From positions 341,620,001 to 341,684,000 of the forward strand of contig OZ024740.1 of NCBI GenBank assembly GCA_964016885.1: DNA of 64,000 nucleotides, written 5' to 3'. Within the stretch, counting starts at the first letter, position 1. Every line of letters starts with the position of its first letter. Below are positions 8,270 to 40,329 of the stretch, in pieces. Made by a program: the position numbers and the translations under genes. The notes beneath the pieces were generated by a model. The model was not told the origin of the DNA and did no database searches. It was given only the letters and a program-made list of their open reading frames with translations. Origin of the DNA: Eledone cirrhosa. Lineage: Eukaryota.

Positions 8270-9428
8270 TTAACTTCAACTCAGTCCTGATTGAGCAGAC
8301 CTTTGATCAAAGGTAATCTAACCATGACATTCTGCTTTTTTTACATATCTAACAATACAATATTTAATGTCTCCTACCATTTTCATACACCTGTTTTCAC
8401 TTGTAAGCCATGTTAATTTACACCTGTGATCCACCTTCACTGATAACCACTACAATATTTGCTGATCTGTTACTCCTGTTTTTACTTGTTATCCACTTTT
8501 GTTTTTATTAATAATTTACTCTTGATTTTAATGGCTACCCGACTTCTATTTTCACTAAGGATACACCTCTAATTTAGCTGAGGATACACTCCCATTTTTA
8601 TTGGTGAGTCACTCACATATATGTTTATTCAATAAATACTGTGAACTTGTGATTCCAAGCTAACTTGTTTTTAGAAAAGCATTTTGTCTGTTAAATATAT
8701 ATACATCTCTAATCTTTTATCCACACAGCAGAGCGAACAGCCTAATTCCCTTCCAACAACAAGTCTTTTATTTGTCTTCTGTAGTCCTCCATTTTCATTT
8801 TAGTGTAATTTATCAGTTATCTTTTATAACAACAACAACAAACCCGCTAACTTTCCATATCTGCGAAAAATGATAATATATAATTTTTTTTTTTTTCCTG
8901 TGAAGAATTTTTCTGAAGAATTTTTCTGTCACCACCTCTCAGGGAATCTAGTACTGTTAATAACCATTGCTGTCTGCCAGTCAAGTTATTTCATTGTATT
9001 TAAAAAGCTTTACAGTGTTTCACACAGCTTTTGATTTTTTTTTTTTTTTTTAGTATTTAAAAGAAATCAACTTAAAGGTTTAGGATTGGGTGTGTGGTAA
9101 AGAAACTTGCTTTATAGCCATGTGGCTTTCTTAGCTCCTATCCCACTGAGTGGAACCTATTGAGTGAATTTGGTAGAAAGAAACTTTAACGAACCCCATC
9201 CATCATATATACCACCATCAGCATTATTATCAGTTTTAAGTTCAGGTGGTGGTGGTGGTGGGGGGGGGGGGGGTGATGGTGATGATGATGATGAAGGGGA
9301 TATAATTGCTAGATTTGGGTACTGAAGTGCACTAAACATGCAATGAATAAAGGACTCAATACTAATTGTAGAGTCAAAACTATATTTCTCTATGGTGATT
9401 TTATTTAGAAGATTTTCAAAATATTCTG

Positions 9429-13200: not shown

Positions 13201-16200
13201 TGATGGTGATAGTGATGATGCCTATTGTTGTCTAGTCTAACAGCCACTGGTGTTGATGGTGATAGTGATGATGCCTATTGTTGTCTAGTCTAACAGCCAC
13301 TGGTGTTGATGGTGATAGTGATGATGCCTATTGTTGTCTAGTCTAACAGCCACCGATGTTGATGGTGATAGTGATGATGCCTATTGTTGTCTAGTCTAAC
13401 AGCCACCAGTGTTGATGGTGATAGTGATGATGCCTATTGTTGTCTAGTCTAACAGCCACCGGTGTTGATGGTGATAGTGATGATGCCTATTGTTGTCTAG
13501 TCTAACAGCCACTGGTGTTGATGGTGATAGTGATGATGCCTATTGTTGTCTAGTCTAACAGCCACCGATGTTGATGGTGATAGTGATGATGCCTATTGTT
13601 GTCTAGTCTAACAGCCACTGGTGTTGATGGTGATAGTGATGATGCCTATTGTTGTCTAGTCTAACAGCCACTGGTGTTGATGGTGATAGTGATGATGCCT
13701 ATTGTTGTCTAGTCTAACAGCCACAGGTGTTGATGGTGATAGTGATGATGCCTATTGTTGTCTAGTCTAACAGCCACTGGTGTTGATGGTGATAGTGATG
13801 ATGCCTATTGCTGTCTAGTCTAACAGCCACAGGTGTTGATGGTGATAGTGATGATGCCTATTGCTGTCTAGTCTAACAGCCACCGATGTTGATGGTGATA
13901 GTGATGATGCCTATTGCTGTCTAGTCTAACAGCCACCGATGTTGATGGTGATAGTGATGATGCCTATTGCTGTCTAGTCTAACAGCCACAGGTGTTGATG
14001 GTGATAGTGATGATGCCTATTGTTGTCTAGTCTAACAGCCACTGGTGTTGATGGTGATAGTGATGATGCCTATTGCTGTCTAGTCTAACAGCCACTGGTG
14101 TTGATGGTGATAGTGATGATGCCTATTGTTGTCTAGTCTAACAGCCACTGGTGTTGATGGTGATAGTGATGATGCCTATTGCTGTCTAGTCTAACAGCCA
14201 CAGGTGTTGATGGTGATAGTGATGATGCCTATTGTTGTCTAGTCTAACAGCCACAGGTGTTGATGGTGATAGTGATGATGCCTATTGTTGTCTAGTCTAA
14301 CAGCCACAGGTGTTGATGGTGATAGTGATGATGCCTATTGTTGTCTAGTCTAACAGCCACAGGTGTTGATGGTGATAGTGATGATGCCTATTGCTGTCTA
14401 GTCTAACAGCCACTGGTGTTGATGGTGATAGTGATGATGCCTATTGTTGTCTAGTCTAACAGCCACAGATGTTGATGGTGATAGTGATGATGCCTATTGC
14501 TGTCTAGTCTAACAGCCACCGATGTTGATGGTGATAGTGATGATGCCTATTGTTGTCTAGTCTAACAGCCACCGATGTTGATGGTGATAGTGATGATGCC
14601 TATTGCTGTCTAGTCTAACAGCCACCGATGTTGATGGTGATAGTGATGATGCCTATTGTTGTCTAGTCTAACAGCCACCGATGTTGATGGTGATAGTGAT
14701 GATGCCTATTGCTGTCTAGTCTAACAGCCACCGATGTTGATGGTGATAGTGATGATGCCTATTGTTGTCTAGTCTAACAGCCACCGATGTTGATGGTGAT
14801 AGTGATGATGCCTATTGCTGTCTAGTCTAACAGCCACCGATGTTGATGGTGATAGTGATGATGCCTATTGCTGTCTAGTCTAACAGCCACTGGTGTTGAT
14901 GGTGATAGTGATGATGCCTATTGTTGTCTAGTCTAACAGCCACTGGTGTTGATGGTGATAGTGATGATGCCTATTGCTGTCTAGTCTAACAGCCACCGGT
15001 GTTGATGGTGATAGTGATGATGCCTATTGCTGTGTAGTCTAACAGCCACAGGTGTTGATGGTGATAGTGATGATGCCTATTGCTGTCTAGTCTAACAGCC
15101 ACCGGTGTTGATGGTGATAGTGATGATGCCTATTGTTGTCTAGTCTAACAGCCACCGGTGTTGATGGTGATAGTGATGATGCCTATTGCTGTCTAGTCTA
15201 ACAGCCACCGGTGTTGATGGTGATAGTGATGATGCCTATTGCTGTCTAGTCTAACAGCCACCGGTGTTGATGGTGATAGTGATGATGCCTATTGTTGTCT
15301 AGTCTAACAGCCACAGGTGTTGATGGTGATAGTGATGATGCCTATTGTTGTCTAGTCTAACAGCCACTGGTGTTGATGGTGATAGTGATGATGCCTATTG
15401 CTGTCTAGTCTAACAGCCACAGGTGTTGATGGTGATAGTGATGATGCCTATTGTTGTCTAGTCTAACAGCCACAGGTGTTGATGGTGATAGTGATGATGC
15501 CTATTGTTGTCTAGTCTAACAGCCACTGGTGTTGATGGTGATAGTGATGATGCCTATTGCTGTCTAGTCTAACAGCCACAGGTGTTGATGGTGATAGTGA
15601 TGATGCCTATTGTTGTCTAGTCTAACAGCCACAGGTGTTGATGGTGATAGTGATGATGCCTATTGTTGTCTAGTCTAACAGCCACTGGTGTTGATGGTGA
15701 TAGTGATGATGCCTATTGCTGTCTAGTCTAACAGCCACAGGTGTTGATGGTGATAGTGATGATGCCTATTGTTGTCTAGTCTAACAGCCACTGGTGTTGA
15801 TGGTGATAGTGATGATGCCTATTGCTGTCTAGTCTAACAGCCACCGGTGTTGATGGTGATAGTGATGATGCCTATTGCTGTGTAGTCTAACAGCCACTGG
15901 TGTTGATGGTGATAGTGATGATGCCTATTGCTGTCTAGTCTAACAGCCACCGGTGTTGATGGTGATAGTGATGATGCCTATTGCTGTCTAGTCTAACAGC
16001 CACCGGTGTTGATGGTGATAGTGATGATGCCTATTGCTGTCTAGTCTAACAGCCACCGGTGTTGATGGTGATAGTGATGATGCCTATTGCTGTCTAGTCT
16101 AACAGCCACAGGTGTTGATGGTGATAGTGATGATGCCTATATCTGTCTAGTCTAACAGGCACCGGTGTTGATGGTGATAGTGATGATGCCTATTGTTGTC

Positions 16201-19200
16201 TAGTCTAACAGCCACAGGTGTTGATGGTGATAGTGATGATGCCTATTGCTGTCTAGTCTAACAGCCACCGGTGTTGATGGTGATAGTGATGATGCCTATT
16301 GTTGTCTAGTCTAACAGCCACCGGTGTTGATGGTGATAGTGATGATGCCTATTGTTGTCTAGTCTAACAGCCACTGGTGTTGATGGTGATAGTGATGATG
16401 CCTATTGCTGTCTAGTCTAACAGCCACTGGTGTTGATGGTGATAGTGATGATGCCTATTGTTGTCTAGTCTAACAGCCACCGGTGTTGATGGTGATAGTG
16501 ATGATGCCTATTGCTGTCTAGTCTAACAGCCACCGGTGTTGATGGTGATAGTGATGATGCCTATTGTTGTCTAGTCTAACAGCCACAGGTGTTGATGGTG
16601 ATAGTGATGATGCCTATTGCTGTCTAGTCTAACAGCCACCGGTGTTGATGGTGATAGTGATGATGCCTATTGCTGTCTAGTCTAACAGCCACCGGTGTTG
16701 ATGGTGATAGTGATGATGCCTATTGCTGTCTAGTCTAACAGCCACCGGTGTTGATGGTGATAGTGATGATGCCTATTGCTGTCTAGTCTAACAGCCACCG
16801 GTGTTGATGGTGATAGTGATGATGCCTATTGTTGTCTAGTCTAACAGCCACAGGTGTTGATGGTGATAGTGATGATGCCTATTGCTGTCTAGTCTAACAG
16901 CCACCGGTGTTGATGGTGATAGTGATGATGCCTATTGTTGTCTAGTCTAACAGCCACAGGTGTTGATGGTGATAGTGATGATGCCTATTGCTGTCTAGTC
17001 TAACAGCCACCGGTGTTGATGGTGATAGTGATGATGCCTATTGTTGTCTAGTCTAACAGCCACAGGTGTTGATGGTGATAGTGATGATGCCTATTGTTGT
17101 CTAGTCTAACAGCCACTGGTGTTGATGGTGATAGTGATGATGCCTATTGCTGTCTAGTCTAACAGCCACTGGTGTTGATGGTGATAGTGATGATGCCTAT
17201 TGTTGTCTAGTCTAACAGCCACCGGTGTTGATGGTGATAGTGATGATGCCTATTGTTGTCTAGTCTAACAGCCACAGGTGTTGATGGTGATAGTGATGAT
17301 GCCTATTGTTGTCTAGTCTAACAGTCACTGGTGTTGATGGTGATAGTGATGATGCCTATTGTTGTCTAGTCTAACAGCCACCGGTGTTGATGGTGATAGT
17401 GATGATGCCTATTGTTGTCTAGTCTAACAGCCACAGGTGTTGATGGTGATAGTGATGATGCCTATTGTTGTCTAGTCTAACAGCCACCGGTGTTGATGGT
17501 GATAGTGATGATGCCTATTGTTGTCTAGTCTAACAGCCACCGGTGTTGATGGTGATAGTGATGATGCCTATTGCTGTCTAGTCTAACAGCCACCGGTGTT
17601 GATGGTGATAATGATGATGCCTATTGTTGTCTAGTCTAACAGCCACAGGTGTTGATGGTGATAGTGATGATGCCTATTGTTGTCTAGTCTAACAGCCACC
17701 GATGTTGATGGTGATAGTGATGATGCCTATTGCTGTCTAGTCTAACAGCCACCGGTGTTGATGGTGATAGTGATGATGCCTATTGCTGTCTAGTCTAACA
17801 GCCACCGGTGTTGATGGTGATAGTGATGATGCCTATTGCTGTCTAGTCTAACAGCCACTGGTGTTGATGGTGATAGTGATGATGCCTATTGTTGTCTAGT
17901 CTAACAGCCACTGGTGTTGATGGTGATAGTGATGATGCCTATTGCTGTCTAGTCTAACAGCCACAGGTGTTGATGGTGATAGTGATGATGCCTATTGCTG
18001 TCTAGTCTAACAGCCACAGGTGTTGATGGTGATAGTGATGATGCCTATTGCTGTCTAGTCTAACAGCCACAGGTGTTGATGGTGATAGTGATAATGCCTA
18101 TTGCTGTCTAGTCTAACAGCCACCGGTGTTGATGGTGATAGTGATGATGCCTATTGCTGTCTAGTCTAACAGCCACCGGTGTTGATGGTGATAGTGATGA
18201 TGCCTATTGTTGTCTAGTCTAACAGCCACAGGTGTTGATGGTGATAGTGATGATGCCTATTGCTGTCTAGTCTAACAGCCACTGGTGTTGATGGTGATAG
18301 TGATGATGCCTATTGCTGTCTAGTCTAACAGCCACTGGTGTTGATGGTGATAGTGATGATGCCTATTGCTGTCTAGTCTAACAGCCACTGGTGTTGATGG
18401 TGATAGTGATGATGCCTATTGTTATCTAGTCTAACAGCCACTGGTGTTGATGGTGATAGTGATGATGCCTATTGTTGTCTAGTCTAACAGCCACTGGTGT
18501 TGATGGTGATAGTGATGATGCCTATTGCTGTCTAGTCTAACAGCCACAGGTGTTGATGGTGATAGTGATGATGCCTATTGTTGTCTAGTCTAACAGCCAC
18601 TGGTGTTGATGGTGATAGTGATGATGCCTATTGCTGTCTAGTCTAACAGCCACTGGTGTTGATGGTGATAGTGATGATGCCTATTGCTGTCTAGTCTAAC
18701 AGCCACAGGTGTTGATGGTGATAGTGATGATGCCTATTGTTGTCTAGTCTAACAGCCACAGGTGTTGATGGTGATAGTGATGATGCCTATTGTTGTCTAG
18801 TCTAACAGCCACTGGTGTTGATGGTGATAGTGATGATGCCTATTGTTGTCTAGTCTAACAGCCACTGGTGTTGATGGTGATAGTGATGATGCCTATTGCT
18901 GTCTAGTCTAACAGCCACAGGTGTTGATGGTGATAGTGATGATGCCTATTGTTGTCTAGTCTAACAGCCACTGGTGTTGATGGTGATAGTGATGATGCCT
19001 ATTGTTGTCTAGTCTAACAGCCACTGGTGTTGATGGTGATAGTGATGATGCCTATTGCTGTCTAGTCTAACAGCCACAGGTGTTGATGGTGATAGTGATG
19101 ATGCCTATTGTTGTCTAGTCTAACAGCCACTGGTGTTGATGGTGATAGTGATGATGCCTATTGCTGTCTAGTCTAACAGCCACCGGTGTTGATGGTGATA

Positions 19201-20244
19201 GTGATGATGCCTATTGCTGTCTAGTCTAACAGCCACTGGTGTTGATGGTGATAGTGATGATGCCTATTGCTGTCTAGTCTAACAGCCACTGGTGTTGATG
19301 GTGATAGTGATGATGCCTATTGCTGTCTAGTCTAACAGCCACTGGTGTTGATGGTGATAGTGATGATGCCTATTGCTGTCTAGTCTAACAGCCACTGGTG
19401 TTGATGGTGATAGTGATGATGCCTATTGCTGTCTAGTCTAACAGCCACAGGTGTTGATGGTGATAGTGATGATGCCTATTGTTGTCTAGTCTAACAGCCA
19501 CTGGTGTTGATGGTGATAGTGATGATGCCTATTGCTGTCTAGTCTAACAGCCACAGGTGTTGATGGTGATAGTGATGATGCCTATTGCTGTCTAGTCTAA
19601 CAGCCACAGGTGTTGATGGTGATAGTGATGATGCCTATTGCTGTCTAGTCTAACAGCCACAGGTGTTGATGGTGATAGTGATGATGCCTATTGTTGTCTA
19701 GTCTAACAGCCACTGGTGTTGATGGTGATAGTGATGATGCCTATTGCTGTCTAGTCTAACAGCCACAGGTGTTGATGGTGATAGTGATGATGCCTATTGC
19801 TGTCTAGTCTAACAGCCACAGGTGTTGATGGTGATAGTGATGATGCCTATTGCTGTCTAGTCTAACAGCCACTGGTGTTGATGGTGATAGTGATGATGCC
19901 TATTGTTGTCTAGTCTAACAGCCACCAGTGTTGATGGTGATAGTGATGATGCCTATTGCTGTCTAGTCTAACAGCCACAGGTGTTGATGGTGATAGTGAT
20001 GATGCCTATTGTTGTCTAGTCTAACAGCCACTGGTGTTGATGGTGATAGTGATGATGCCTATTGCTGTCTAGTCTAACAGCCACCGATGTTGATGGTGAT
20101 AGTGATGATGCCTATTGCTGTCTAGTCTAACAGCCACTGGTGTTGATGGTGATAGTGATGATGCCTATTGCTGTCTAGTCTAACAGCCACAGGTGTTGAT
20201 GGTGATAGTGATGATGCCTATTGCTGTCTAGTCTAACAGCCACC
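10228..20244. repeat. 53-bp tandem minisatellite array, ~189 copies
   Basis: Unit is tgtctagtctaacagccacNgRtgttgatggtgatagtgatgatgcctattgY. Identical phase recurs at 10261, 13441, 16621 and 19801 (3180 = 60 x 53). Confidence 0.98.
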
Positions 20245-27609: not shown

Positions 27610-27662
27610 GAAAAAATTCAGGGCCCCCGACGACTGAGCTCCACCAGCCGTTTCAACAGCTA
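27610..27662 (-). mobile_element. Single arm of the 38873/39092 hammerhead-element family
   Basis: cagggccc..gacgactgagctcc..gccgtttcaacagcta matches 38886-38925 and 39101-39140. Confidence 0.5.
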
Positions 27663-28069: not shown

Positions 28070-28200
28070 GTATCCCAGGTTCTATCGGGAGTAACCACAG
28101 TAAAAAGGTACTCAATACATAGCAGAGTATAAATATTTAATATAGAAATGGCTTCTGACGATTTCCTCTGAATGAAACAGTTCTAGTCCTGTAGAAGCCA

Positions 28201-28208
<8 letters not shown>
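28070..28208. mobile_element. Hammerhead-bearing fold-back element in (TA)n
   Basis: atggctt-CTGACGA-tttcctctgaat-GAAAC-agttctagtcct-GTA-gaagccat (28148-28201). TTGAGTACC lies on the minus strand at 28107-28115. Confidence 0.6.
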
Positions 28209-28230
<22 letters not shown>

Positions 28231-28234
<4 letters not shown>

Positions 28235-28370
28235 AGGTTCATTCAGGAAGTTCTGAGACTTCTTCAGGAGAAACATTTATGAATTTCAAAGAAGTACAAA
28301 ACTAATCTTTTTCAAAGTATGATCCTCTGAGTTTTATGCACTTGCAGTGCTCCAACCACTTTGTGAAGAT
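28231..28370. mobile_element. Mariner-like terminal fragment
   Basis: TA-caaggttcattcaggaagttc terminus followed by ttttcaaagtat..cctctg..tatgcactt, typical of mariner ends. Confidence 0.4.
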
Positions 28371-29244
28371 CCTTCCTATCACCAACCACTTTACAGTGTG
28401 GATTGGGTGCATTATTTGTGCCACCAGTACAGAAATTGTCTTACTGGACTCATGAGTTCTCGCTACCCTATATCAATTTATATTTGGAGTGTCTACTCTC
28501 CTAGATGAGTTGCCTTCACTACAGCTTACAGGCTCCATGTCTGCCCCATACAATCATTTTTAATCGGAGCCTCTGTTCTCCTAGATGTGTTGCCTTCACT
28601 GCGGCTTATGGAGTTCTCCTCTGTCCTCACCAGTTGTTTTTTTTTTAAATCAGAGTCAGTAGACAAGCTGCCTTCATTACAGCTATGGGGTCCGCATCTG
28701 CCCTGAGGAGTCATTTATAATTAGAGTTTTCCCCATCCTTGACAATCTGCCTTCTCAATAAACTACAAAACTCAACATCTCTGTACAATCTTAATTTTAC
28801 TTTACTCAGAACGACTGCTCTCTTAGATACTTGTCTACATTGGACAAAAGAGTAGTAATTTAACATTGGTGATGTAAGAGGTAAGTAGGGAAAACAACAG
28901 ACAGGAAAATGATGGAATGAGGTGAGGGGGAGTAAGGCCATATCTGACAAACAACAATCTGGAACGTCATGAATAGGGGGTAGGGGAGAGGTACGTCATG
29001 ACGTTAGAACAAGAAGCTGCAATAAATATAAATAAATATATATAAATTTAAATATAAATAAATATCAATAAGTATAAATAAATATAAACAAGTATAAACA
29101 AACATAAATACTAAGTCAAACAATTAGGGTTTATATGTCTTACATGTTTGATTATTTTCTTAGTCACAAAAACATGCATTGTAGCTATTAACTTTACTCG
29201 TATGAAGATTCATAATCATATATACATAAGGATATATATATATA

Positions 29245-29384
29245 TATAGATGTGTAAAATCCTGATCGCAGTGCCAAGCGGTTTCAGGGTTTTACACATC
29301 TCTATATCCACTCTACATCTTCCCATGTATCAAGTACTCACATGTTTAGTGGTCTCCTTGATCTCAGCATTGCAGACTCTATTC
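29245..29384. mobile_element. Fold-back element with half-hammerhead (family of 38205-38380)
   Basis: IR 29245-29265/29284-29306. Minus strand reads GAAACCGCTTGGCACTGCGATC. The tail matches the reverse complement of 38210-38300. Confidence 0.6.
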
Positions 29385-29411
29385 ATATATATATATATAT
29401 ATATCTGTGTA

Positions 29412-29464
<53 letters not shown>

Positions 29465-29567
29465 ATATATATAAGTATAAAGTAAGTGTTCAAGTGCAGA
29501 AATGCTTTAAAGACAGCTTATAAAATAGGGGGAAGACTCTTAAAAGGGGGAAAAAGAAGTTGCCATC

Positions 29568-29640
29568 GGCTGCTATGAGGAAATGAACCCCGTATCTTCC
29601 AGATATTGGCTAGACGCTTTAACCGTTAAGCTAAGGAGCC
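29568..29640 (-). pseudogene. tRNA-like sequence (Thr-like scaffold, AAT in the anticodon position); pseudogene or SINE head
   Basis: GGCTCCTTAGCTTAACGGTTAAAGCGTCTAGCCAATATCTGGAAGATACGGGGTTCATTTCCTCATAGCAGCC, 73 nt. It has an A box, a 6/7 acceptor stem and an anticodon stem TCTAG/CTGGA, but a damaged T loop. Confidence 0.6.
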
Positions 29641-29977
29641 ATGACAAATTTCTTCCTTCATTTTAGCTAAGTAACTGGACAACAGCTTTCAGATGTCAGC
29701 AGGCAGGCAGAGAGGGTGACAGACAGACATCTGTGTGTAAACAAATAGTATACAAAGCTGAATGTTTGGCTTTTTGAAGCACTGAGAATATCATCATCAT
29801 CATTTAACGTCCATTTTCTGTGCTAGCATGGGTAGGACGGGCTGTCCCTTTGTGAGCGATCAGAACGGAGGACCATGTTTCGCTCACACAGAACTGATTC
29901 TGGCTTGGTTTCTATGGCTGGATGCCCTTCCTAATGCCAACCATATTTTTAGTGTATACATATATATATATATATAT

Positions 29978-30178
29978 CCTTATGTAGTTTACGGATGATG
30001 GAAAAGACTACTCAATACCAAATTAGAGCTTAAATATACATTTATTATAGCTAAGTAGTAAGTCACACTACTCTGGAATTTCACCCGCACAGCTTCATCA
30101 GACAAGACTAATGATCCTGTGAGTGCACAGGTGAAACTCCAGAGTAACAAGACTCACCACTCAGCCACAATAAATGAA
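29978..30178. mobile_element. Fold-back element with two divergent hammerhead motifs, in (TA)n
   Basis: Plus: CTaATGA-t-cctgtg-agtg-cacagg-t-GAAAC-TCCAGA-GTA-acaagac (30108-30153). Minus: gtcttgt-CTGATGA...GAAA (30062-30108). TTGAGTAG lies on the minus strand at ~30008-30015. Confidence 0.65.
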
Positions 30179-30339
30179 TATATATATATATGTGTGTATG
30201 TGTGTGTGTATGTATACATATATTCAGTATTACAAAAAAAAACAAGGTTAACAACTTACATTCATTTCAGTTGGGAGGGGGCATGGGGATGGGTAAGGTC
30301 AGATGTTATACTGGTAGACAGGTTTTCTCCAGTACAGCA

Positions 30340-30668
30340 TGTTTTGAATTCTCACAGTTCTTTGTCGTCTCTGTTGTGAGGTTCAATTTATTAAGGCTGG
30401 TCTTCTTGAGTCTGCCCCTTCCAAGCCACTGAGATTTCTCTGGATTTCTTTATAGAGCTGTCATCTTCCATATGCATGGCAATATGCACATGGCAATACC
30501 AATACAATCTTCTCTCTTGCACACTATATCCAATTCCTCTTATGCCAAGTTTTTCTCTCACCTCGTTTATGCTAAATCATTCATGCACACTAACTTTACA
30601 CATCCACTGGAGCACACTTGCTCATTTCTTTCTAGTCTTCACAGGTCTTCTGCAGTCAAGGCCCATGA
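30340..30668 (-). mobile_element. Degenerate RTE fragment
   Basis: Similar to the WYCH..EDDS..GRGRLKKT region of RTE. Confidence 0.5.
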
Positions 30669-30688
30669 ATATATATATATATATATAT

Positions 30689-31266
30689 AATTATAATAAA
30701 ATAACAGGAGGCTGGACTTGTGTAAATCCTTGAAAGGTTTATTATACTATGATCATTTCAATGACCGGGTTCCGTATGAATCCAGTGATATCATCAGGTA
30801 TTCGAAATATAATAAATGAATGTAACAGATAAAATCCATGGGGCTGAAAATCATAGATCCGAGGACAAACGACCATCTAGCATTTTCCACTTTAGCCGGA
30901 CGACCGACCATCTAGCATCTTCCACTTTAACCGGCTAAAGTGGAAGATGCTAGATGGTCGGTCGTCCTCGGCTCTATGATTTTCAGCCCCATGGATTTTA
31001 TCTGTTACATTCATTTATTATATTTCGAATACCTGATGATATCACCGGATTCATACGGAACCCGGTCATTGAAATGATCATAGTATAATAAACCTTTCAA
31101 GGATTTACACAAGTCCAGCCTCCTGTCATTTTATTTACAATAATTAACTCCGTATTAGCACTACCAACTACACAAATGAAGACGGTTGAGCTGCTTTACG
31201 TTGAGTACTCTCCATATTATTACATCAAGATTGACCATACGGAATGACCAACTCTATCCAACTCTA
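30689..31266. mobile_element. Large near-perfect fold-back (arms ~210 bp) with an intact hammerhead in each arm and a TTGAGTACTC tail
   Basis: 30689-30898 is the reverse complement of 30931-31145. The centre has a ~34-bp tandem duplication. The element is flanked by (TA)n. Confidence 0.8.
31029..31086 (+). ncRNA. Minimal type I hammerhead ribozyme motif (mirror copy on - strand at ~30744-30801)
   Basis: atac-CTGATGA-tatc-accggattc-atacg-gaacccggt-catt-GAAA-TGATCA-TA-gtat. Helix I is atac/gtat, helix III is palindromic ATGATCAT, and the triplet is AUA. Confidence 0.72.
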
Positions 31267-32212
31267 TATATATATATATATATATACTAATATAGTACAA
31301 AACCAATATACCTACTGGAAACTACACATTGATTGCTCACTCTGGTGAACCTACAGTAACCGGACATTACAACCCCTTAAAAAATATACATATAGACATC
31401 ATACAATGTAATTTACTTTGTACATTAAAATCTAACAATGTTTCATACAAATTGTCTTACTACAAATTTAAATATCTATCTATTGATATATTATTGTCAT
31501 CATCATTTTGCATGCCGGCATGAGTTGGATGGGTTCGTATGGTCTGAGACTAAATGAGTCAGAGGCCATGTTTTGCTCATATGTTTCATCCAACTTTGAC
31601 ATAATTTTTACTGCAGGATGCCCTTTCTACTATTACCAACTACTTTACTGAATATACTGGGTGCATTTGATCATGGCACCAGCAGTAGCACTTTGCATGT
31701 TGTATTAGGTGCATTTTACCATGACACTAACACTACTTCTTTACAGAGTGTATTGGGTGTATTTTATCATGGCACCAGCACTACTACTTTACTGAATATA
31801 CTGTGCCTATGGGAAGGCAGGTTTTTTGTATTAACGCCAGAGATCCCAATCTTGTGTCATTGTCTTCAGTGTATTTTTTTGTGGCTCTATCTTTGGATAT
31901 TTTGGCTGCCATATTAGCAAACTTCTTTGTATATGTATGCATGTATTATCTGAAGGCCTTGTTAGTAAACTTCTTCAGCTTGTTCACATACACACACACA
32001 TACACATACATGTCAGATATACACATATGTCTGTGCATTTCACATCTTCAGACACACACACACACTTAAATATCAGCACAATAGTAAATATGTGCCACAA
32101 TAAGCTACGTATTTCTATTCCCCTCTGGATTTACAACTGATAAGCTGTAATTGTATAATTAGGGAGGTATATTAATAAGGTTTATATCTTATGTATGCCA
32201 TAGCTCAGCAAA

Positions 32213-32277
<65 letters not shown>

Positions 32278-32559
32278 CTCTCTCTCTCTCACACACACTC
32301 TCTCTCTCTCACTCTCTTCATAGCTTTTGTTCAGATAAGGCACGAATGTGATTTGTGGTGACAGTTTTCAGGGACTCCTGCGATATATCAGCAGGAGCAC
32401 AGTTTTAGTGTAGTTTAGTGTAATGAATCCAGCTATATTTATCATGAATACATAAAGATATAGTTGTACACATACATTCATCTTGTTGGTGTTATTGTTA
32501 CACTCCCTGTCAGTCCCAAAGATGAATGTTCTAGTTTTTTGTCTAAAGGAAATCCAGAT

Positions 32560-32822
32560 TGTGAAATTAACGTGCAAGCAAGTGGCTGAGCATTCCACAG
32601 GCATGTGCACCCTTAGCATAATTCTCAGAGAGATTTAGCATCACATTTTCTGTGACAAGGCTGACTTTTTTAATAGCAGGTACAACTCACTTTTGCCAGC
32701 AGAGTGGACTGGATTAATGTGAAACAAAGTATCTTGCTCAAGGATACAGCATGTTGTCAGGAATCAAACACATAACATGAAGATTGTGAACTGAACACCA
32801 TAACCACTAAGTCACATGCATT
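32560..32822 (-). mobile_element. tRNA-derived SINE
   Basis: tRNA-like head at the right end, ttgagcaagatac core. Shares sequence with 1300-1790. Confidence 0.55.
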
Positions 32823-33072
32823 CACTCATACATATATGCATTAAAGTTTGAATGAAATATGAAAAGTTTGTACTATAAAATAGAATGATACACTTAGATG
32901 GTATTATGAAGTATAATGTTTGTGTTTGTAATAGATATATTTCCATGCATCAGCTATATCCTAAAGCAAAGATATTTAAAATGTGTTGATAAGGCAATAA
33001 TTTAAATTAGCAGCATTCATATATGAACTTGTATGAGAAACTTTTGCTACTTCAAGTGGCTATATGAATTGA

Positions 33073-33256
33073 TAATTGTTTCTACTTTAGGCACAAGGCC
33101 AGCAATTACCCAGTACATTACTGGTACTTTATTTTATCGACCCCATAAGGATGAAAGGCAAAGTCAACCTCGGCGGGATTTGAACTCAGATCATAAAGGG
33201 ACGTAACTATGCTGGAAAGCATGGCGTCCGACCCTCTACCGATACTGCCAATCCAC
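33073..33256 (-). mobile_element. SINE with Meta/MESC-type core
   Basis: Reverse complement of 6174-6364. Confidence 0.82.
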
Positions 33257-33740
33257 AATAACACTCTAACAGATATGCTGAGTCCTTACTCTCCAAGACC
33301 CCAATTTGTGGGAATTTTTTTGCCTTCAGGCATTGGTTTTTCAAAAGGAAAGGAACCAATCATTAGATTGGACAAAGGAAACAATGTTTTCATTAGCCTT
33401 TCCATTGCTGAAACTATCTGGCAGTTGCAGCTCCTGGCAGAAGGGGAAACATAATGTATTTTGTTCAAGAACCCAATATGTCGCCTGGTCCAGGAATCAA
33501 AACTGTGACCTTGTGATTGGAAGTCTGACACCAGAACCACTAGGCCACATAAATCTATATGTGCATGTGTGTGTGGCCCCATTGCGTAACATTCCATATT
33601 TAGGTATTTGTGTTCTCACATGTAGACACACGTCCTTTACGATAGTGTTGTGTCCCTAAACAAAGTTTATTTCCTTTAATAGTTACAATGTAATTTATCT
33701 GCAGTATGTATACGATGAGATATGATTAAAATGTGTGTGT

Positions 33741-34225
33741 ATCATCATCATTTTACGTCCGCTTTTTCCCTGCTTGCAAGGGTGGGACAGGAACTGATTC
33801 TGGCTTGATTTCTACAGCTGGATGCCCTTCCTAACACCAACCACATTTACAGTGAGTGCTGGGTGCTTTTTTTTTGCCGTGGCACCTCCACGACCACTTT
33901 TCAGTGGAATGATAGGGACCCCAGACCCTATCATCTCATTTCTACAGCTGAGTAAACTGGAGCAATGTGAAATAAAGTGTCTTGCTCAAGACACTTTGCT
34001 CCAGTTTACTCAGCTGTAGAAATGAGATGATAGGGACTGGGGTCCCTATCATTCCACTGCAAAAGTGGTCGTGGAGGTGCCACGGCAAAAAAGCACCCAG
34101 CACTCACTGTAAATGAGGTTGGTGTTAGGAAGGGCATCCAGCTGTAGAAATCAAGCCAGAATCAGTTCCCGTCCCACCCTTGCAAGCAGGGAAAAGTGGA
34201 CGTGAAATGATGATGATGATGATGA
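33741..34225. mobile_element. Head-to-head palindrome of two 5'-truncated SINE copies (family of 62931-63260)
   Basis: 33741-33965 is the reverse complement of 33996-34225, with (GAT)n tails pointing outward. Confidence 0.88.
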
Positions 34226-34485
34226 TATGTGAAGTAATTCCGTCGGAAAGGTACTGGTATGTGTATTACTAGATGTGTATTTTTATGTATATATATTTAT
34301 GTATATGCACATCTCGTGTTTTTTTTCTTATTACCTCATGTATATGTATGTGTATGTATTTTTGTCCCTGTCTGTAGTCGCATATACGCTTATGTGAATA
34401 AGTATACGTCTACATACTTTTTAAGTATATGCGCGTGGTTGTGAGTGTGTGTATGTTTTTGTTCTCGATATTTATTGTTTATTTA

Positions 34486-36113
34486 TCATCATCATCATCA
34501 TCATCATCGTTTAACGTCTGTGTTCCACGCTTGCATGGGTTTGGACGGGAGTTTTCCCACTTGAGGCAAGAGTGATTGTCTTGCTCGCATAGGACTGTCT
34601 GGCGGGTTTTCTACAGCTGGATGCCCTTCCTAACACCAACCACATTTACAGTGTGGGCTGGGAGGTTTTTACCGTGTTGCCTACACGGCCACATTACAGC
34701 GTGGACTGTGTGTTTTTTTTGTCGTGACACCTACACGATCTCATTTGTTTCGGCCTGGATGGTGTGGCACCAATATAACTTTACATTGAAAGGGGCGGTG
34801 TGGATGGGGTGGGGGTGGTGGGACGGGGGAGTATTTTGTTAGAGATGCCTACTGACTGTAGTAGGTTTTACTTTGTATTTAGGTAAGGCGGGTCTTCTCT
34901 ATTACTGAGTACCGCCAAAGGTCTCGGTCCAGTGACATTGTCTTGGAGAGGTGTAAGTGTGTGAGGTCGGAATTTATCAGCTCGTCCCAGGTTTTTCTGG
35001 GTCTGCCTACTCCGTAGCTACCGTCTATCTTTATTGCCCTGCACTTTGTTATACAGCTGTCGTCTTTCATGCGCATCACGTGACCATACCAACGTAGCCT
35101 TCTCTCGAGTAAACAACATCTGATCCCTCTTATTTCTAATTTTTTCCTTAGTTCGCTTATGCTTTGCCATTCACGTATATTACTATTACACATCCAGCGG
35201 AGCATGCAAGCTTCGTTCCTCTCCAGTCTGCGTATATCCTCTGCACACAATGCCCAGGTCTCACTGCCATGCAACATTGCTGTTCGTATGCAGGCATCAT
35301 ACAACCTGCCTTTCATTTTTAGGGAGAACCCTTTAGCGGCTAATAGTGGCATAAGCTCTCTGAACTTTTTCCATCCAGTTCTGACTCTAGCTACTGTACT
35401 TTCAGAGCACCCTCCCCCACTGCTGATTTTGTCACCCAGGTAACGGAAGCTGTCCACTATTTCTATAGAACCCTCTGCGCAATTGAAAGAGCTAGTATTT
35501 TGTGGGCACTTGCTGCTACTTATTGCACCAGAGCACCGGCCACATGTAAAATCTATGTTCTTAGTTAGCTTACCTGTGATCCCACTACATCTTTTATGCA
35601 CCCATACTTTGCATTTGGGACATAAAATGAAGTTTCTGCCTACTCCTTTCCTACACACTGAGCATGGCCATTTCCCAGATGGGACCAGTGCCCTATTTTC
35701 CTTCCTACAAACTAGAACTTTAGTCTTAGCCAGGTTAATTTTAAGGCCTTTTGATTCTAGGCCGTGCTTCCATGTTTGGAATTTCTTCTCTAGCTCGGCC
35801 ATTGATTCAGCTATGAGCATTAGATCATCTGTGTATAGGAGTTCCCATGGGCAGCCGGTCTTGAACTCCACTGTTATAGCCTGAAGGGCAATAATAAATA
35901 GTAGGGGGCTAAGAACAGAGCCCTGATGAACACCAACTTTTACACTAAACTCTTCACTATGTTCGTTGTTAATTCTAACCTTGCTGACTGTTTCTTTATA
36001 CATGGCTTGTATAGCTCTCACAAGCCATTCGTCAACACCTAGTTTTCTAAGAGCCCACCAGATAATGGAACGGGGGACTCTGTCGAAGGCTTTCTCCAAG
36101 TCAACAAAAGCTA

Positions 36114-36116
<3 letters not shown>
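34486..36116 (-). mobile_element. Young 5'-truncated RTE LINE
   Basis: Uninterrupted 406-aa ORF and complete 3' UTR with (GAT)n tail. Closely matches 3640-5252. Confidence 0.95.
34879..36099 (-). CDS. RTE reverse transcriptase C-terminal portion with intact C4HC3 PHD-type finger (5'-truncated, YADD>YTDD)
   Basis: EKAFD..GVHQGSVLSP..LLYTDD..CSVC-x10-CPKC-x4-H-x2-C-x14-CGRC..FRYLG..LRWYGHV. Confidence 0.8.
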   Translation of the reverse strand: MEKAFDRVPRSIIWWALRKLGVDEWLVRAIQAMYKETVSKVRINNEHSEEFSVKVGVHQGSVLSPLLFIIALQAITVEFKTGCPWELLYTDDLMLIAESMAELEKKFQTWKHGLESKGLKINLAKTKVLVCRKENRALVPSGKWPCSVCRKGVGRNFILCPKCKVWVHKRCSGITGKLTKNIDFTCGRCSGAISSSKCPQNTSSFNCAEGSIEIVDSFRYLGDKISSGGGCSESTVARVRTGWKKFRELMPLLAAKGFSLKMKGRLYDACIRTAMLHGSETWALCAEDIRRLERNEACMLRWMCNSNIREWQSISELRKKLEIRGIRCCLLERRLRWYGHVMRMKDDSCITKCRAIKIDGSYGVGRPRKTWDELINSDLTHLHLSKTMSLDRDLWRYSVIEKTRLT

Positions 36117-36153
<37 letters not shown>

Positions 36154-36159
<6 letters not shown>

Positions 36160-36588
36160 TCAAGATAAGCAGAACAAGTAAAATTCAACCAATTTTTCAA
36201 AATAAATCAAAATTAATTTACAATTAAAATTAATCAAAATTAAAAAATATAATATAAATATTTACCTATTCAAATGGCCCTTCAAATGGATATTAATGGA
36301 AAAACAAAGATCATTAATATCCATGTGATATCTAATGTTTTGCAAAGTGAAACTGTACAGTAAGGGCCATTTGAATAGGTAAATATTTATATTATATTTT
36401 TTAATTTTGATTAATTTTAATTGTAAATTAATTTTGATTTATTTTGAAAAATTGGTTGAATTTTACTTGTTCTGCTTATCTTGATATATAGTTCTGGTGT
36501 ATCAAATTATTACCATAGAACTACCTTGAATCATAGACAACCTATGTATTTCTGGGGGTACCTTGTACCCTCAGATATATTAACTTTA

Positions 36589-36591
<3 letters not shown>
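36154..36591. mobile_element. Perfect ~129-bp inverted repeat around a half-hammerhead, in (TA)n
   Basis: 36154-36282 is the reverse complement of 36362-36490. GAAAC-TGTACA-GTA lies at 36349-36362. Confidence 0.7.
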
Positions 36592-36649
<58 letters not shown>

Positions 36650-36787
36650 ATTTATATATATTTATATATTTTTATATTATTTTTATTTCCCCTCTTCTTC
36701 TCCGTCCGTTTTTTTCCTCAGCCTCACTTTCATATTTCTTAAATTTTGTTTTCAAATCCATATTTAATAAAAACACCATGCTTTTTA

Positions 36788-36845
36788 TTCATTCTGACGA
36801 CTGAAAACAGATACATCTGCTTTCAAGAAACCACTGGTAAATGAA
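36788..36845 (+). ncRNA. Type I hammerhead ribozyme motif with intact core
   Basis: ttcatt-CTGACGA-c-tgaaa-acagat-ac-atctg-c-tttca-a-GAAAC-CACTG-GTA-aatgaa. It has a 6-bp helix I, a long helix II, helix III ACC/GGT and a GUA triplet. It lies between two (TA)n tracts. Confidence 0.75.
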
Positions 36846-36875
36846 ATAATTATCTCATGTTGTTTATTATATAAC

Positions 36876-36916
<41 letters not shown>

Positions 36917-37388
36917 ACATACCATGATGAAAAGCACCCAGTCCACCCTGTCAGATTGTCATTTTGGTATCACAATTAAAAGTTCCCAGTTCATACAGTA
37001 ACGCAATTGGCGTAAGGAAGGGCATTTAGCTGTAGAAACAAAGCCCAAAACAGATCTGTATAGGCGAAACACAAGCACCTGAACTGACTTGTCTCACAAC
37101 GTGACAACCTGTCTAACCCATACAACCATGGAAAATAGACATTAAACTGTGATGATAATGATATTGATATTGATGATATTGATATCTATACATTCACAGT
37201 TCTGTCTGAGCAAGTTTCCATCTACTAAATTTCACTCACAAGGCATTTGTCAACCCAAAGTGCCATGTAGTGGGAATGAATCTGAAACCACATTGTTTCA
37301 AAGTCAACTCCTTAACCACACAGTTATACTTGAGTCTGAACTAAAAGCACATCTGTGTCCCTTTGCTCTGTTTTATATCCATTATCTT

Positions 37389-37576
37389 GGTGAATTGGCA
37401 GTATTGGTAGAGGGTCGGACACCATGATTTGACGCATAGAGTTACGGCCCTTGCCATTCTGAGTTCAAATCCCGCCGAGGTTAACTTTGCCTTTCATCCT
37501 TATGGGGTCGATAAAATAAAGTACCAGTAATGTACTGGGTAATTGCTGGCCTTGTGCCAATAGTAGAAACAATTAT
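37389..37576 (+). mobile_element. SINE with Meta/MESC-type core
   Basis: Matches 6174-6364. Confidence 0.8.
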
Positions 37577-38204
37577 CTTATTTACACTTGAATTACATCA
37601 CATAATTTCTCTTACACAACCTGCAACAAATTATAGCCATTTTTGCAATTATTTTAAAATGCTACTTTTGACATTTCAATGTCAGTTAACTTGATTACTT
37701 CAAAAGGTCAGAAAATTAGATTTAATATTCAATAATTCTGTAATACTTTCACACTTTTTGTTATATATTATGTTGCTTGTTAAGTACTCCTTTTTCATAT
37801 CTCTTCCTTCCTCTATAAAACTGACTTGATAGCTTATTAAAAGAATCAATTGTTTTTATTAGAATTTCATTTGTAATTTGTATGAATAATAATTGAACTA
37901 TAATTTTTCATGAGTTCCTTATTTTGAAATATAAAAAAAATGGCATAATAGTATTGTATATGTATATACATACATACATACATCACCATTATCACCGTTT
38001 AACATCCATTTTTTCCACGCTAGCATGGATTAGGTGAGTTACCCCGTTGTGAGACAAACCAAGGCCAATGACCATGTTTTGGCTTGGTTTCTATGGCTGA
38101 ATGCCCTTCCTAACATCAACCACTTTACAGTGTGTGCTGGGTGCTAGGCTATACACTGTACATATATATATATATATGTATATAAAGAGAGAGAGGGAGA
38201 GAAA

Positions 38205-38380
38205 GAGAAAGAGTCTGCAGTGCTGAGACCAGGCAGACCACTAATCATGGGAGTACTCAATGCATGGGGAGATGCAGAGTGAGTATAGAGATATCTAAAA
38301 TCCTGACCGTGGCGCCAAGCGGTTTCCTGTTGTGTCAAGCTGAAACCGCTTGGTGTTGCGTTTGGGATGTTAGATTCTCT
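38205..38380 (-). mobile_element. Fold-back element with half-hammerhead and TTGAGTACTC motif
   Basis: Minus strand reads GAAACCGCTTGGCGCCACGGTC (38305-38326; palindrome TGGCGCCA). An inverted copy lies at 38342-38380, and gagtactcaa at 38251-38260. Confidence 0.6.
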
Positions 38381-38768
38381 CTCTCTCGCTCTCTATATAT
38401 CATCATCAACATCATCATCATCATTGTTTTTACATCAATTTTTCCACACTTGCATGGGTATATTTAAATTTCTTAGAAAATTTTAGCAATCTCAAATGCA
38501 GAAAACAATAGCATGGAGTTTGATTCTTCATAGTAACTGCTGGCTACTTTTTTCCATCTATAGAGGTATTCCACCCAATTTTCTAAGCTATTATTTATAT
38601 CAATCAATTATGATTACAGTTATTTTCTGTGTTTGGGATTTCTATCAAATTTTAATCTATAGTTTTCTACCAAATTTTAATGCATTTTAATCTGATAGTT
38701 TACCTTTTAAATGTTGTATGTATATCTATCTATCTGTCTTTCTCTCTTACTCTCTCTCTCTCTCTCTC

Positions 38769-38842
<74 letters not shown>

Positions 38843-38872
38843 GTATATATATATATATATACATATGTGTAT

Positions 38873-39074
38873 ATAGGAAATGGTCAGGACCCTCACGGCT
38901 GAGCTCCGGCCATTTCGACAGCTAGATCCAAACGTTCGGATCTAGATGTCGAAACGGCCAGAGCTCAGCCGTCAGAGTCCTCACTCTTTTCCTATTACCC
39001 ACTCTACTACCCTAAGTATTGAGTACTCTGGTGCGTTATGGTCCATCTGGTATCTTACCACACCCTCTTTGTTT
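38873..39074 (+). mobile_element. Fold-back centred on hammerhead helix II, with TTGAGTACTC tail
   Basis: IR 38873-38995. GAAAC-GGCCAGAGCTCAGCC-GTC at 38951-38973. ttgagtactc at 39019-39028. Confidence 0.62.
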
Positions 39075-39091
39075 TATATATATATATTTTA

Positions 39092-39245
39092 GAAAGAGTT
39101 AGGGCCTGATGGCTGATCTCTTGCAGTTTCAACAACTAGCTGTTGAAACAGCAAGAGCTCAGCCACCAGGCCCCGACTATTTCCAATATATTGAGTACTC
39201 TGTTGAATAATGGTTTAACTAGTTTAATATTGGTTTAAACCTGAT
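39092..39245 (+). mobile_element. Related fold-back element with TTGAGTACTC tail
   Basis: IR 39092-39184 centred on caactagctg. GAAAC..gagctcagcc from 39145. ttgagtactc at 39191-39200. Confidence 0.58.
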
Positions 39246-40329
39246 ATATACCTATCTCTCTCTCTATATATATATATATTGAGAGAGACTGAACGAGAGA
39301 GAGAGAGTTACACATATATACTCTGTTTTAGCTAAACCTGAGCTGCTTTTTTGACATCCTCCACATTTTTTTTACTGTTACTTTTTGTATTCTGCTTCTT
39401 TATGTATTTTGATATTTTCCAGTTAGAAAGAAAATTTTGGTCAAAAACTTTCTCACATGTCTGGTTCTTCTCAGCTAGTGCAGAGCCTTTTCTCTAACTA
39501 CTTCTTGTCCCAGTCTTGGCCTTGCCATATAAGGGACTTTTTTCCAGCATCATAGCACAGCATTAAATCTGGTTTTGAATTTTGTTTTATAATATATACG
39601 ATTTTATTCACAGTTTTATATATAACATTACAAATCATTTACAATTCTTACAGAATGAAAATATAAACATAAATAATATATACAATTAATTATTGCTAGG
39701 AACCTTAAAAATATAATACACAAAAATATATTTAATCAAAGTTTACGTTACTGCTTCAGTATCTCCCTCACAATTCATCACCATCACCGTTTTACGTCCG
39801 TTCTTCCACGCTAGCATGGGTTAGACGGGTTGTCCTGTTGTGGGCAGTGTCTGGTCGGCTGACCATGCCTTGCTCATACAGGAACTGTTTGGATTTGCAA
39901 AATTGTATTCTATATTATCCTCTGTTTAATATTTGTTGATTTTTTAAATTCAGAAAGCAGTTTTTATTGCAGGATTTTAGATATCTCTATACTTATGTGT
40001 TGTTATTTTAAGTAGTTTTTTTTTAATTCTTTATTACCTGTTTTATAGTCCTGCAGTATATATTTTATAATAGTTTTCTAGTTGTAGAACCCTACTTCTC
40101 TGTATTTGTGGTAGATATCATCTTTCTGTTTAAGCTTTTGAAAGGTTTATTCTATATTCAGTTATTGTTTCCTTTGATAAACTTAAGAAAATTAACAAAG
40201 AGAGGACAAGACAATGATTGAAAACAAGGCAAAACGAAAAACAATTTTTTAAAGGGAAACTTTAAAAAATTATTTTTTGAAAATAAAAATACAAACGAAG
40301 GATAAAGAACTCCATGGTCATCAGTCATT

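Follow-up and report, generated by a model that had tools for sequence, protein, structure and literature searches.

The 64,000-nt stretch of the Eledone cirrhosa genome analysed here (GenBank:OZ024740.1, positions 341,620,001–341,684,000; hereafter the window, whose own coordinates are used throughout) carries several fold-back insertions that contain the motif TTGAGTACTC or variants of it on the tail 3′ of a hammerhead ribozyme. We found that this motif is one strand, the 3′ one, of a bulged hairpin, RCUC–stem/loop–UY–GAGY–RC, with a two-base bulge, and that the hairpin is a real, clade-specific cis signal of Penelope-like elements (PLEs) of the Hydra clade, usually present twice between the hammerhead and the start codon. 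Insertion ends lie mostly a few bases 5′ of one or the other hairpin, and in our judgement the hairpin is likely to be an RNA docking site for the reverse transcriptase (RT), which would start a few bases 5′ of it. The element class, its hammerhead, its (TA)n targeting and its tail are already known.

Motif sites in the window

A sequence-only reading of the window had taken the motif for a linear sequence signal, seen at seven sites in otherwise unrelated families. All seven sites were found in their places, with TTGAGTACTC at 31201 (+), 39019 (+), 39191 (+) and 38251–38260 (−) and variants at 28108–28115 (−), 30006–30015 (−) and 29330 (+); the gap between the 10-mer and the first microsatellite was 38, 45, 28, 54, 55, 46 and 43 nt, i.e. 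28–55 nt. The exact 10-mer occurred 4 times between 28001 and 39300 against a mean of 0.024, a number reached by none of 1000 shuffles. Over the whole window the 8-mer alone was not above chance, with 5 occurrences compared with an expectation of 2.82 and with 5 reached in 13 of 100 shuffles. A whole hammerhead core on the same strand was present in only two of the seven motif-bearing copies (31201 and 30015). The copies at 38260, 39019 and 39191 retain only the 3′ half of the hammerhead, and the long copies of 28115 and 29330 start at the predicted cleavage site (from 28146 and 29285, respectively), the remaining ribozyme lying on the inverted partner. Such a start was seen in these two of the seven window elements; elsewhere most copies start further upstream.

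The seven sites represent five or six families rather than seven, since 29330 and 38260 belong to one family (D; z 14–15). Apart from this pair and a weak likeness among 39019 (family A), 39191 and family D (z 2.1–3.6), the tails were unalignable outside the motif.

A covarying bulged hairpin

Clustering of the hits from fetched loci gave a broader motif, TYGAGTRC, nearly always preceded by ACTC with complementary bases in between, and the hairpin consensus reads ACTC-stem-loop-stem-TY-GAGT-RC; with its variants the motif, TYGAG[T/C][A/G]C, is wider than the TTGAGTAC(TC) proposed initially. In the genome of 3.0 Gb, the pattern ACTCY N4-34 R TYGAGTAC had 102,469 matches against 2,740 in the control, and its GTGC form 59,742 against 1,355, giving in sum about 162,000 matches, some of them overlapping, against 4,095 in the reversed control. 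In evenly spaced samples amounting to 760 kb, ACTC together with at least 3 upper pairs accompanied 42 of the 85 TYGAGTRC, while ten control motifs gave 0–5 of 19–214.

Pairing was examined with one copy per family, taking the nearest 5′ arm and not requiring pairing. An arm was present in 16 of 27 clusters, the remaining 11 being mostly single, decayed or chance matches. In these 16 families the three variable upper pairs were formed in 16/16, 15/16 and 14/16 (shuffles 12.3, 12.0 and 6.1; p 0.0002–0.004), and in the metagenome relatives described below those of the hairpin nearer the hammerhead (hairpin 1) were formed in 29/30, 24/30 and 23/29 (shuffles 22.7, 16.8 and 13.6; p 0.0002 each). 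The first upper pair was Watson-Crick in 29/30 metagenome and 16/16 own-genome hairpins. The outer pair of hairpin 1 was A-U in 16/16 of the own genome and G-C in 30/30 of the metagenome set. The bulge was TT, TC or TA in 29/30 metagenome hairpins and TT or TC in 16/16 of the own genome, GAG/CTC being invariant by selection. Within family D the upper stem reads TACAT/ATGTA at 29310–29337 and TGCAT/ATGCA at 38280. G-U wobbles outnumbered A-C mismatches by 19 to 6 (p 0.015), which favours the sense strand. The loop ranged from 3 to about 45 nt and was C-UUCG-G, an RNA-type loop, in family E; the loop-side RCT bases were conserved without pairing. An alignment (A2) built from 50 of the 77 listed hairpins, a selection leaning towards structure, was 98.4% paired with 55 double changes; the unselected counts by family given above are the fair measure. 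A linear signal is not supported; the motif is the 3′ strand of a covarying hairpin.

A covariance model trained on 50 hairpins, among them relatives of several window families, recovered six of the seven window sites plus a further hairpin at 9346–9380, overlooked in the sequence-only reading, which is probably a decayed copy. The site missed was 39191, whose hairpin has no 5′ arm owing to a 20-nt deletion relative to the related copy L011. Curated Rfam covariance models gave no relevant match in the window or in 5 twin-hairpin loci, the Rfam hammerhead models also remaining unmatched there. Satellites were also noticed in which the unit is barely more than the family A hairpin 1 with its TA-like lead-in (L319 and L320, 58-nt unit; L338–L347, 63-nt unit); the tandem pieces in L319, L323 and L338 are without a ribozyme core.

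Assignment of the carriers to Hydra-clade Penelope-like elements

By the diagnostic motifs of those with a known ORF, the carriers of the hairpin are 3′ ends of Hydra-clade PLEs and form deep branches of one clade. Family B continues behind hammerhead and hairpin into an intact open reading frame (ORF) of 713 aa (P0001, locus L191) with RT and C-terminal GIY-YIG domains (motifs YRDD and IVY..TYIG), and the AlphaFold model of this protein (predicted local distance difference test 90.5) had its best structural matches in TERT. A read-through copy of family A leads into a related Hydra-type ORF, as do those of F2, F6, F8 and F9. P0001 has RWR and SDKT; in an alignment of 60 relatives (A1), R38 was found in 60/60, DKT in 53/60 and DKS in 7/60, and motifs of RWK/DKT type likewise occur in families A, F2 and F8. 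The linker of P0001 is of the CxCx5C form (CNCLNKEAC), and CDLC and CMH represent the CxxC and CxH motifs that flank a conserved E and N, CxH being present in 60/60 of A1. These are the motifs given as diagnostic of Hydra (PMC8557442, in the parts available), and the families were therefore assigned to that clade. The Nematis clade was rejected, as P0001 has the Hydra forms and not CCHH with a linker of the CX2-5CxxC type. The canonical hammerhead in families B, C and E and the (TA)n ends of 48 of 50 hairpin hits were noted as well. Pfam gave no match on P0001 and, among the 60 relatives, one RVT_1 and one GIY-YIG match; no relatives were present in viral_contigs.

The carrier proteins are 30–53% identical, so that the families, although not unrelated as had been supposed, belong to one clade that is deeply diverged and not to a single recent family. 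For family C, hairpin 2 and a start codon are present in one read-through copy, in which no matching ORF was read. A non-LTR (long terminal repeat) retrozyme was rejected as the source, because the window copies are fold-back, 5′-truncated insertions with mostly partial ribozymes and not tandem non-coding units with whole hammerheads. In the full-length family B elements L191 (4780–4960, −) and L192, a diverged 3′ region carries the motif without hammerhead core or 5′ arm and is unlike the usual pseudo-LTR (pLTR) of the family.

Twin arrangement of the hairpins

In families A, C, F2, F6, F8, F9 and F21, read-through copies show that two hairpins lie downstream of the hammerhead and ahead of the start codon; a role of the motif as a coding or splice signal was rejected given this location upstream of the start codon. 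The same arrangement was found outside the genome. The alignment of 60 relatives led to 77 metagenome loci; 61 of them reach the ORF start and represent 46 families. All 22 families with an upstream hammerhead core had the hairpin and 16 had two, as scored with a looser descriptor on the best copy of each family; the strict descriptor found it in 26 of 31 loci. In the ORF interior the descriptor gave 3 hits in 150 kb. The 5′ arms of hairpins 1 and 2 were 59–83 nt apart in the metagenome set, and hairpin 2 ended 13–41 nt before the start codon (37 cases).

Inspection by eye of the published consensi (PMC8557442 File S7, as far as available) revealed two hairpins in Hydra-1_Ajap and one each in the tails of Hydra-2_Amil and Hydra-2_Ajap, i.e. 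a hairpin in 3 of the 6 new consensi, with a variant in a fourth, Hydra-1_Crog. In the Naiad and Chlamys consensi only one of the motif matches listed, with line-broken matches missed, fits the hairpin. It lies in the middle of the 3′ untranslated region (UTR) of Naiad_Mmer, was not seen in the neighbouring Naiad consensus and is probably a chance match.

Insertion ends and fold-back pairing

Most of the (TA)n insertion ends are found 3–10 bases 5′ of one of the two hairpins. When read-through copies were used as references, TA-ended ends fell into two clusters just 5′ of both hairpins in families A (76/76), F2 (53/53), F6 (17/17) and F8 (12/13). In family C, 12 short ends lay 5–11 nt before hairpin 1 and 18 of 19 long ends 5–12 nt before the position of hairpin 2, as taken from L068; in F9, where long ends alone were countable, 6 lay at 7 nt, and family D had no countable fold-back pairs. 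In the metagenome set, with 7 contig ends and 2 read-throughs set aside, 8 of 11 informative ends lay 0–4 nt before a hairpin. The ends thus follow the hairpins within about 10 nt across spacings of 59–144 nt, despite the AT-richness of the whole UTR. Searches requiring the motif supplied many of the loci; this favours long copies without determining the positions of the ends. A TA-like stretch precedes the hairpin: TATA or ATAT was present in the 12 nt before hairpin 1 in 23/30 metagenome (shuffles 9.0) and 11/16 own-genome families (shuffles 5.0).

Head-to-head insertions paired one long with one short end in 110 of 122 cases, and in 25 of 28 in the unbiased sample (p 3e-5). The distance of 30–60 nt from motif to microsatellite given in the sequence-only reading is accordingly explained by the spacing to the second hairpin, which is normally outside the inserted copy.

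Relation to hammerheads across the genome

Genome-wide, a hammerhead core followed by TYGAGTAC 45–75 nt on was matched 12,304 times and the reversed pattern 8 times, counts that reflect the copy number of a few families and not independent events. Neither of the outcomes named beforehand as refuting the proposal, a lack of enrichment downstream of hammerheads or a single recently diverged family, was observed. In 590 kb of evenly spaced samples, (TA)4 was found 30–69 nt downstream of 17 of 20 motif hits, compared with about 1% per 10-nt bin at random positions. The covariance model had 50 hits in the 760-kb sample (2 by construction), with (TA)4 25–85 nt downstream of 48 and upstream of 11, the background being 7%.

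The motif does not follow hammerheads in general. A hammerhead descriptor gave 79 hits in 824 kb of unbiased sequence against 1 in the reversed control, forming 11 groups with at least 2 copies, of which 4 have the hairpin by descriptor, 2 more are known carriers and 5 show none; a motif downstream of every hammerhead was rejected on these grounds. The hairpin is found at variable distances of about 25–65 nt from the ribozyme; that of the second hairpin is greater.

Several variants of the ribozyme were observed. In family A the core is changed to TTGATAA or TTGAGAA, a U3-A8 pair replacing C3-G8, with CTGAGAA in two copies (L354, L356, L357, L074, L351, L363); its stem II loop is about 35 nt, and most copies are truncated inside stem II. 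Because of the altered core and the long loop, standard core patterns miss this family. In another Hydra family (L051, L035 and L044) there is, 3′ of the ORF, a hammerhead-like motif (core CAGAAGA plus GAAAG) with a long 3′ UTR and a variant hairpin ending GAGC-CC. Tandem arrays in L057 and L051 have whole hammerheads (17 and 4 descriptor hits, respectively) and no hairpin and are retrozyme-like. Another hammerhead family, at 916–952 of the window and in L370–L397 (at least 1,736 candidates), consists of tandem units of about 430 nt with two insertion ends and without the Hydra hairpin; a search for an ORF linked to it found none, and it is possibly the retrozyme of another PLE clade with a tail signal of its own.

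Features of the window

The insertions and hairpins of the window are listed in Table 1. For family C, at least 2,609 fold-back candidates were counted genome-wide.

Table 1. Fold-back insertions, hammerhead motifs and hairpins in the window (scores in bits are those of the covariance model)
Feature	Position	Strand	Remarks
Lone, slightly changed hairpin	9346–9380	−	24.2 bits; neither hammerhead nor (TA)n adjacent
Family B fold-back insertion in (TA)n	28071–28209		Long copy (−), 28146 to 28071; short copy (+), 28150–28209
Hairpin 1, family B	28108–28128	−	5′ arm 28128–28125; bulge and 3′ arm 28115–28108; 25.3 bits
Complete type I hammerhead motif in short inverted partner, family B	28150–28199	+	Predicted cleavage after 28193; stems I, II and III read from sequence
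Family D fold-back insertion	29243–29380		Long copy (+) from predicted cleavage site
Hairpin 1, family D, decayed	29310–29337	+	G to A in 3′ arm; 16.7 bits
Family E fold-back insertion	29981–30181		Long copy (−), its hammerhead decayed, core at 30101; short copy (+), 30108–30181
Hairpin 1, family E, decayed	30008–30029	−	18.7 bits; C-UUCG-G loop in most family copies
Family C fold-back insertion	30687–31260		Short copy, inverted (30811 to 30687); centre palindromic; long copy 31019–31260
Type I hammerhead motif, family C	31029–31086	+	Minimal palindromic stem III; predicted cleavage after 31082
Hairpin 1, family C	31147–31208	+	Extended upper stem of about 45 nt; 22.4 bits
Family D long copy with hammerhead 3′ half	38203–38355	−	
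Hairpin 1, family D	38253–38280	−	28.8 bits; training set included a duplicate of this copy
Family A fold-back insertion	38873–39073		Short inverted copy 38933 to 38873; long copy 38934–39073 with hammerhead 3′ half
Hairpin 1, family A	39001–39026	+	31.6 bits
A-related fold-back insertion	39083–39249		Motif 39191–39198, 5′ arm deleted; no model match

Elements of the window recur at 100% identity about 750 kb downstream on the same contig (L001, L146, L166, L368), which is a recent segmental duplication or an assembly duplicate. Other features noticed were a short-end, A-type fragment at 27617–27661 (−) abutting an (AAG)n stretch, which may be the 3′ end of another retroelement; a 53-bp satellite at 10230–20243 (189 copies, 97% matches); a long perfect fold-back at 33929–34032; and a fragment of a non-LTR RT at 34578–36100 (− strand) resembling the RTE-type ORF of L192.

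Proposed role of the hairpins

The proposal of a conserved cis signal in this PLE group was supported, and among the functions suggested for it, recognition by the RT agrees best with the data. In the scheme that we favour, the GIY-YIG domain would cut both strands of a (TA)n target, and each DNA end would anneal to the UAU/AUA bases immediately 5′ of a hairpin, priming its own complementary DNA (cDNA), so that each hairpin would position the priming at one of the two cut ends. The end primed at hairpin 2 would give the long copy containing hairpin 1, which is what had been described as the tail, and the end primed at hairpin 1 would give the short inverted copy; the two cDNAs would then be joined in the middle of the insertion by short homology. 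The hairpin directing an event would itself be left uncopied, which would account for hairpin 2 being seen only in read-through copies. A Poseidon PLE studied in vitro cuts and extends both strands, has two internal start sites on its RNA that bound the tail, and is predicted to act as a dimer (PMC11167929, available parts); this behaviour fits priming at two ends.

As a further and more tentative step, the bulge may form a U-A-U base triple holding an arginine as in TAR of human immunodeficiency virus type 1 (HIV-1) and 7SK, and the invariant arginine of the RWK motif of the clade may be considered a candidate partner. Taken together, a pair of TAR-like, arginine-sandwich hairpins might dock a telomerase-like RT dimer, each subunit priming one end of the double-strand cut 5′ of its hairpin; such a portable 20-nt start signal would explain both the PLE tail and the head-to-head insertions, and no RNA element bound by the RT would have been defined before it in the sister group of telomerase. 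We regard this full version as speculative and doubtful in its present form.

A number of observations weigh against docking at the hairpins. Among the sequencing runs, no RNA run was listed as containing the element. Hairpin 2 of the metagenome set covaries less (pair 1 in 35/36 without variation, pair 2 in 21/36, pair 3 in 18/33), and one hairpin only was found in 6 of the 22 metagenome families. The predicted stability is weak, −0.7 to −5 kcal/mol for 5 of the 7 window copies, and with folding z values of 0.2, −4.8, −1.7, −1.9, −0.2, −1.6 and 1.5 the copies are mostly no better than shuffled sequence, the best of them folding in a shifted register; the hairpin would hence need protein or ions. 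Three of the 11 informative metagenome ends lie elsewhere, and nine long-long pairs and one short-short pair were counted. In family B the second position has only a reduced hairpin of 4 bp with a 5-nt loop, yet there are two end clusters and 27 of 28 pairs are long plus short; its short ends spread from 1 to 17 nt. The hairpin-less hammerhead family at 916 is likewise two-ended, which indicates that two ends do not require the Hydra hairpin. Neither read-through copies nor ORFs were found for families D and E of the window. To be copied a second time, a stretch would demand either strand displacement on a single RNA or the use of two RNAs, and head-to-head junctions have been read, in the available parts of Arkhipova 2013 (PMC3846280), as self-priming on an antisense template.

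Alternative explanations

The alternative that survives best, though we think it unlikely, is that the hairpin acts in DNA: the endonuclease or the repair machinery would recognize it, either as single-stranded cDNA or within the donor pLTR, and would cut a few bases before it, so that the ends would be points of resolution and not of priming. The positions of the ends alone do not separate the two, and the TA-like stretch before each hairpin would also suit an AT-preferring nuclease. Moreover, the tail of the D. virilis Penelope is needed for endonuclease recognition of plasmid DNA (as cited in PMC11167929), and tails were attributed to endonuclease-mediated resolution by Craig 2021 (PMC8557442), both as stated in the parts available. 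However, the excess of wobbles speaks for the sense strand, and first-strand cDNA would be antisense; the loops of family E are of the RNA type; and compensatory changes are unexpected for a double-stranded site.

It is less probable still that the hairpins are a translational or packaging operator, bound by the protein of the element for its own translation or for the choice of RNA, the ends lying nearby only because a TA-rich 5′ UTR pairs with the target. Small bulged hairpins are common operators, and the closeness of hairpin 2 to the start codon would suit such a function; but the ends keep to the hairpins when the spacing changes within an AT-rich UTR, and an operator would leave unexplained why short ends are combined with long ones.

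We see little chance that the hairpin has been inherited as a neutral feature from a common ancestor, or that it belongs to the tertiary fold of the hammerhead. All carriers with a known ORF do belong to one clade, and the lower stem repeats the ACTC/GAGT of stem III of several Hydra hammerheads (PMC8557442 File S2, as far as available), but the covariation has already largely refuted this idea: the hairpin is kept with compensatory changes at the protein divergence given above while its flanks cannot be aligned, and its distance from the ribozyme is variable, with a second copy further off. Least credible of all is an internal promoter element of the pLTR, which would be in keeping with the internal promoter and downstream element of Penelope (PMC2377424, available parts) and with the conserved unpaired RCT bases, but a double-stranded promoter motif does not agree with compensatory pairing over loops of 3 to about 45 nt, nor with the presence in each element of two copies, each of which accompanies an insertion end.

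Comparison with known systems and implications

Structured RNA that positions an RT on its template is known from R2 3′ UTRs and telomerase RNA. The RT-binding structure of R2 is itself copied, being 5′ of the start; unlike this, the hairpin described here would lie 3′ of the start and be left uncopied. Non-LTR retrozymes of Metazoa (Cervera and de la Pena 2020, PMC7229834; bioRxiv 10.64898/2026.07.22.740005) are similar in that they are short repeats without coding capacity, carry type I hammerheads and are related to the pLTRs of PLEs. The window copies differ from them in being 5′-truncated fold-back ends of coding elements and not tandem units; no downstream motif is reported in the available parts of these two papers.

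The elements share with the Hydra clade as described (PMC8557442, available parts) a single ORF with RT and GIY-YIG, the RWK, DKT, CxCx5C, CxxC and CxH motifs, a type I hammerhead in the pLTR, (TA)n targets, inverted 5′-truncated partners and a one-sided tail. They differ in the hairpin and its twin arrangement, neither of which is described in those parts, and in tails of about 55–145 nt compared with the 30–40 bp given there for PLEs. Poseidon of Anolis carolinensis (Frangieh et al. 2024, PMC11167929, available parts) is alike in its two internal, tail-bounding starts, in the cutting and extension of both strands and in its AT-rich target; its initiation involves one AC-rich stem-loop inside the ORF, without target homology and with the binding motif undefined, whereas the ends described here fall within the 5′ UTR, shortly ahead of either of two separate conserved hairpins, and have TA-like homology to the target. 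The arginine sandwich of HIV-1 TAR and of 7SK stem-loop 1 (Pham et al. 2018, PMC6189040, available parts) has a comparable layout, with a paired purine, a bulged U and a second pyrimidine, then G-C, A-U and G-C (in TAR A22, U23, G26, A27-U38 and G28). Here the bulge is on the 3′ strand and the loop on the other side; the likeness is one of layout and implies no homology.

No description of the hairpin was found in the open-licence literature, including the available parts of PMC8557442, PMC11167929, PMC4209133, PMC7229834, PMC3846280, PMC2377424 and bioRxiv 10.64898/2026.07.22.740005, a search that extended neither to the supplements of PMC11167929 and of the preprint nor to Repbase notes.

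On how PLEs choose their template and starting point, the one in vitro study gave two internal starts and no binding motif. A clade-wide hairpin of 20 nt at a fixed offset from both insertion ends provides a precise, mutable target for testing priming at two ends, and a view of how the closest relatives of telomerase recognize RNA. An RT with an internal start next to a portable hairpin might also be of use in programmed insertion. Finally, the hairpin is a marker by which Hydra elements, of which this genome holds well over 100,000 copies, can be found and delimited.

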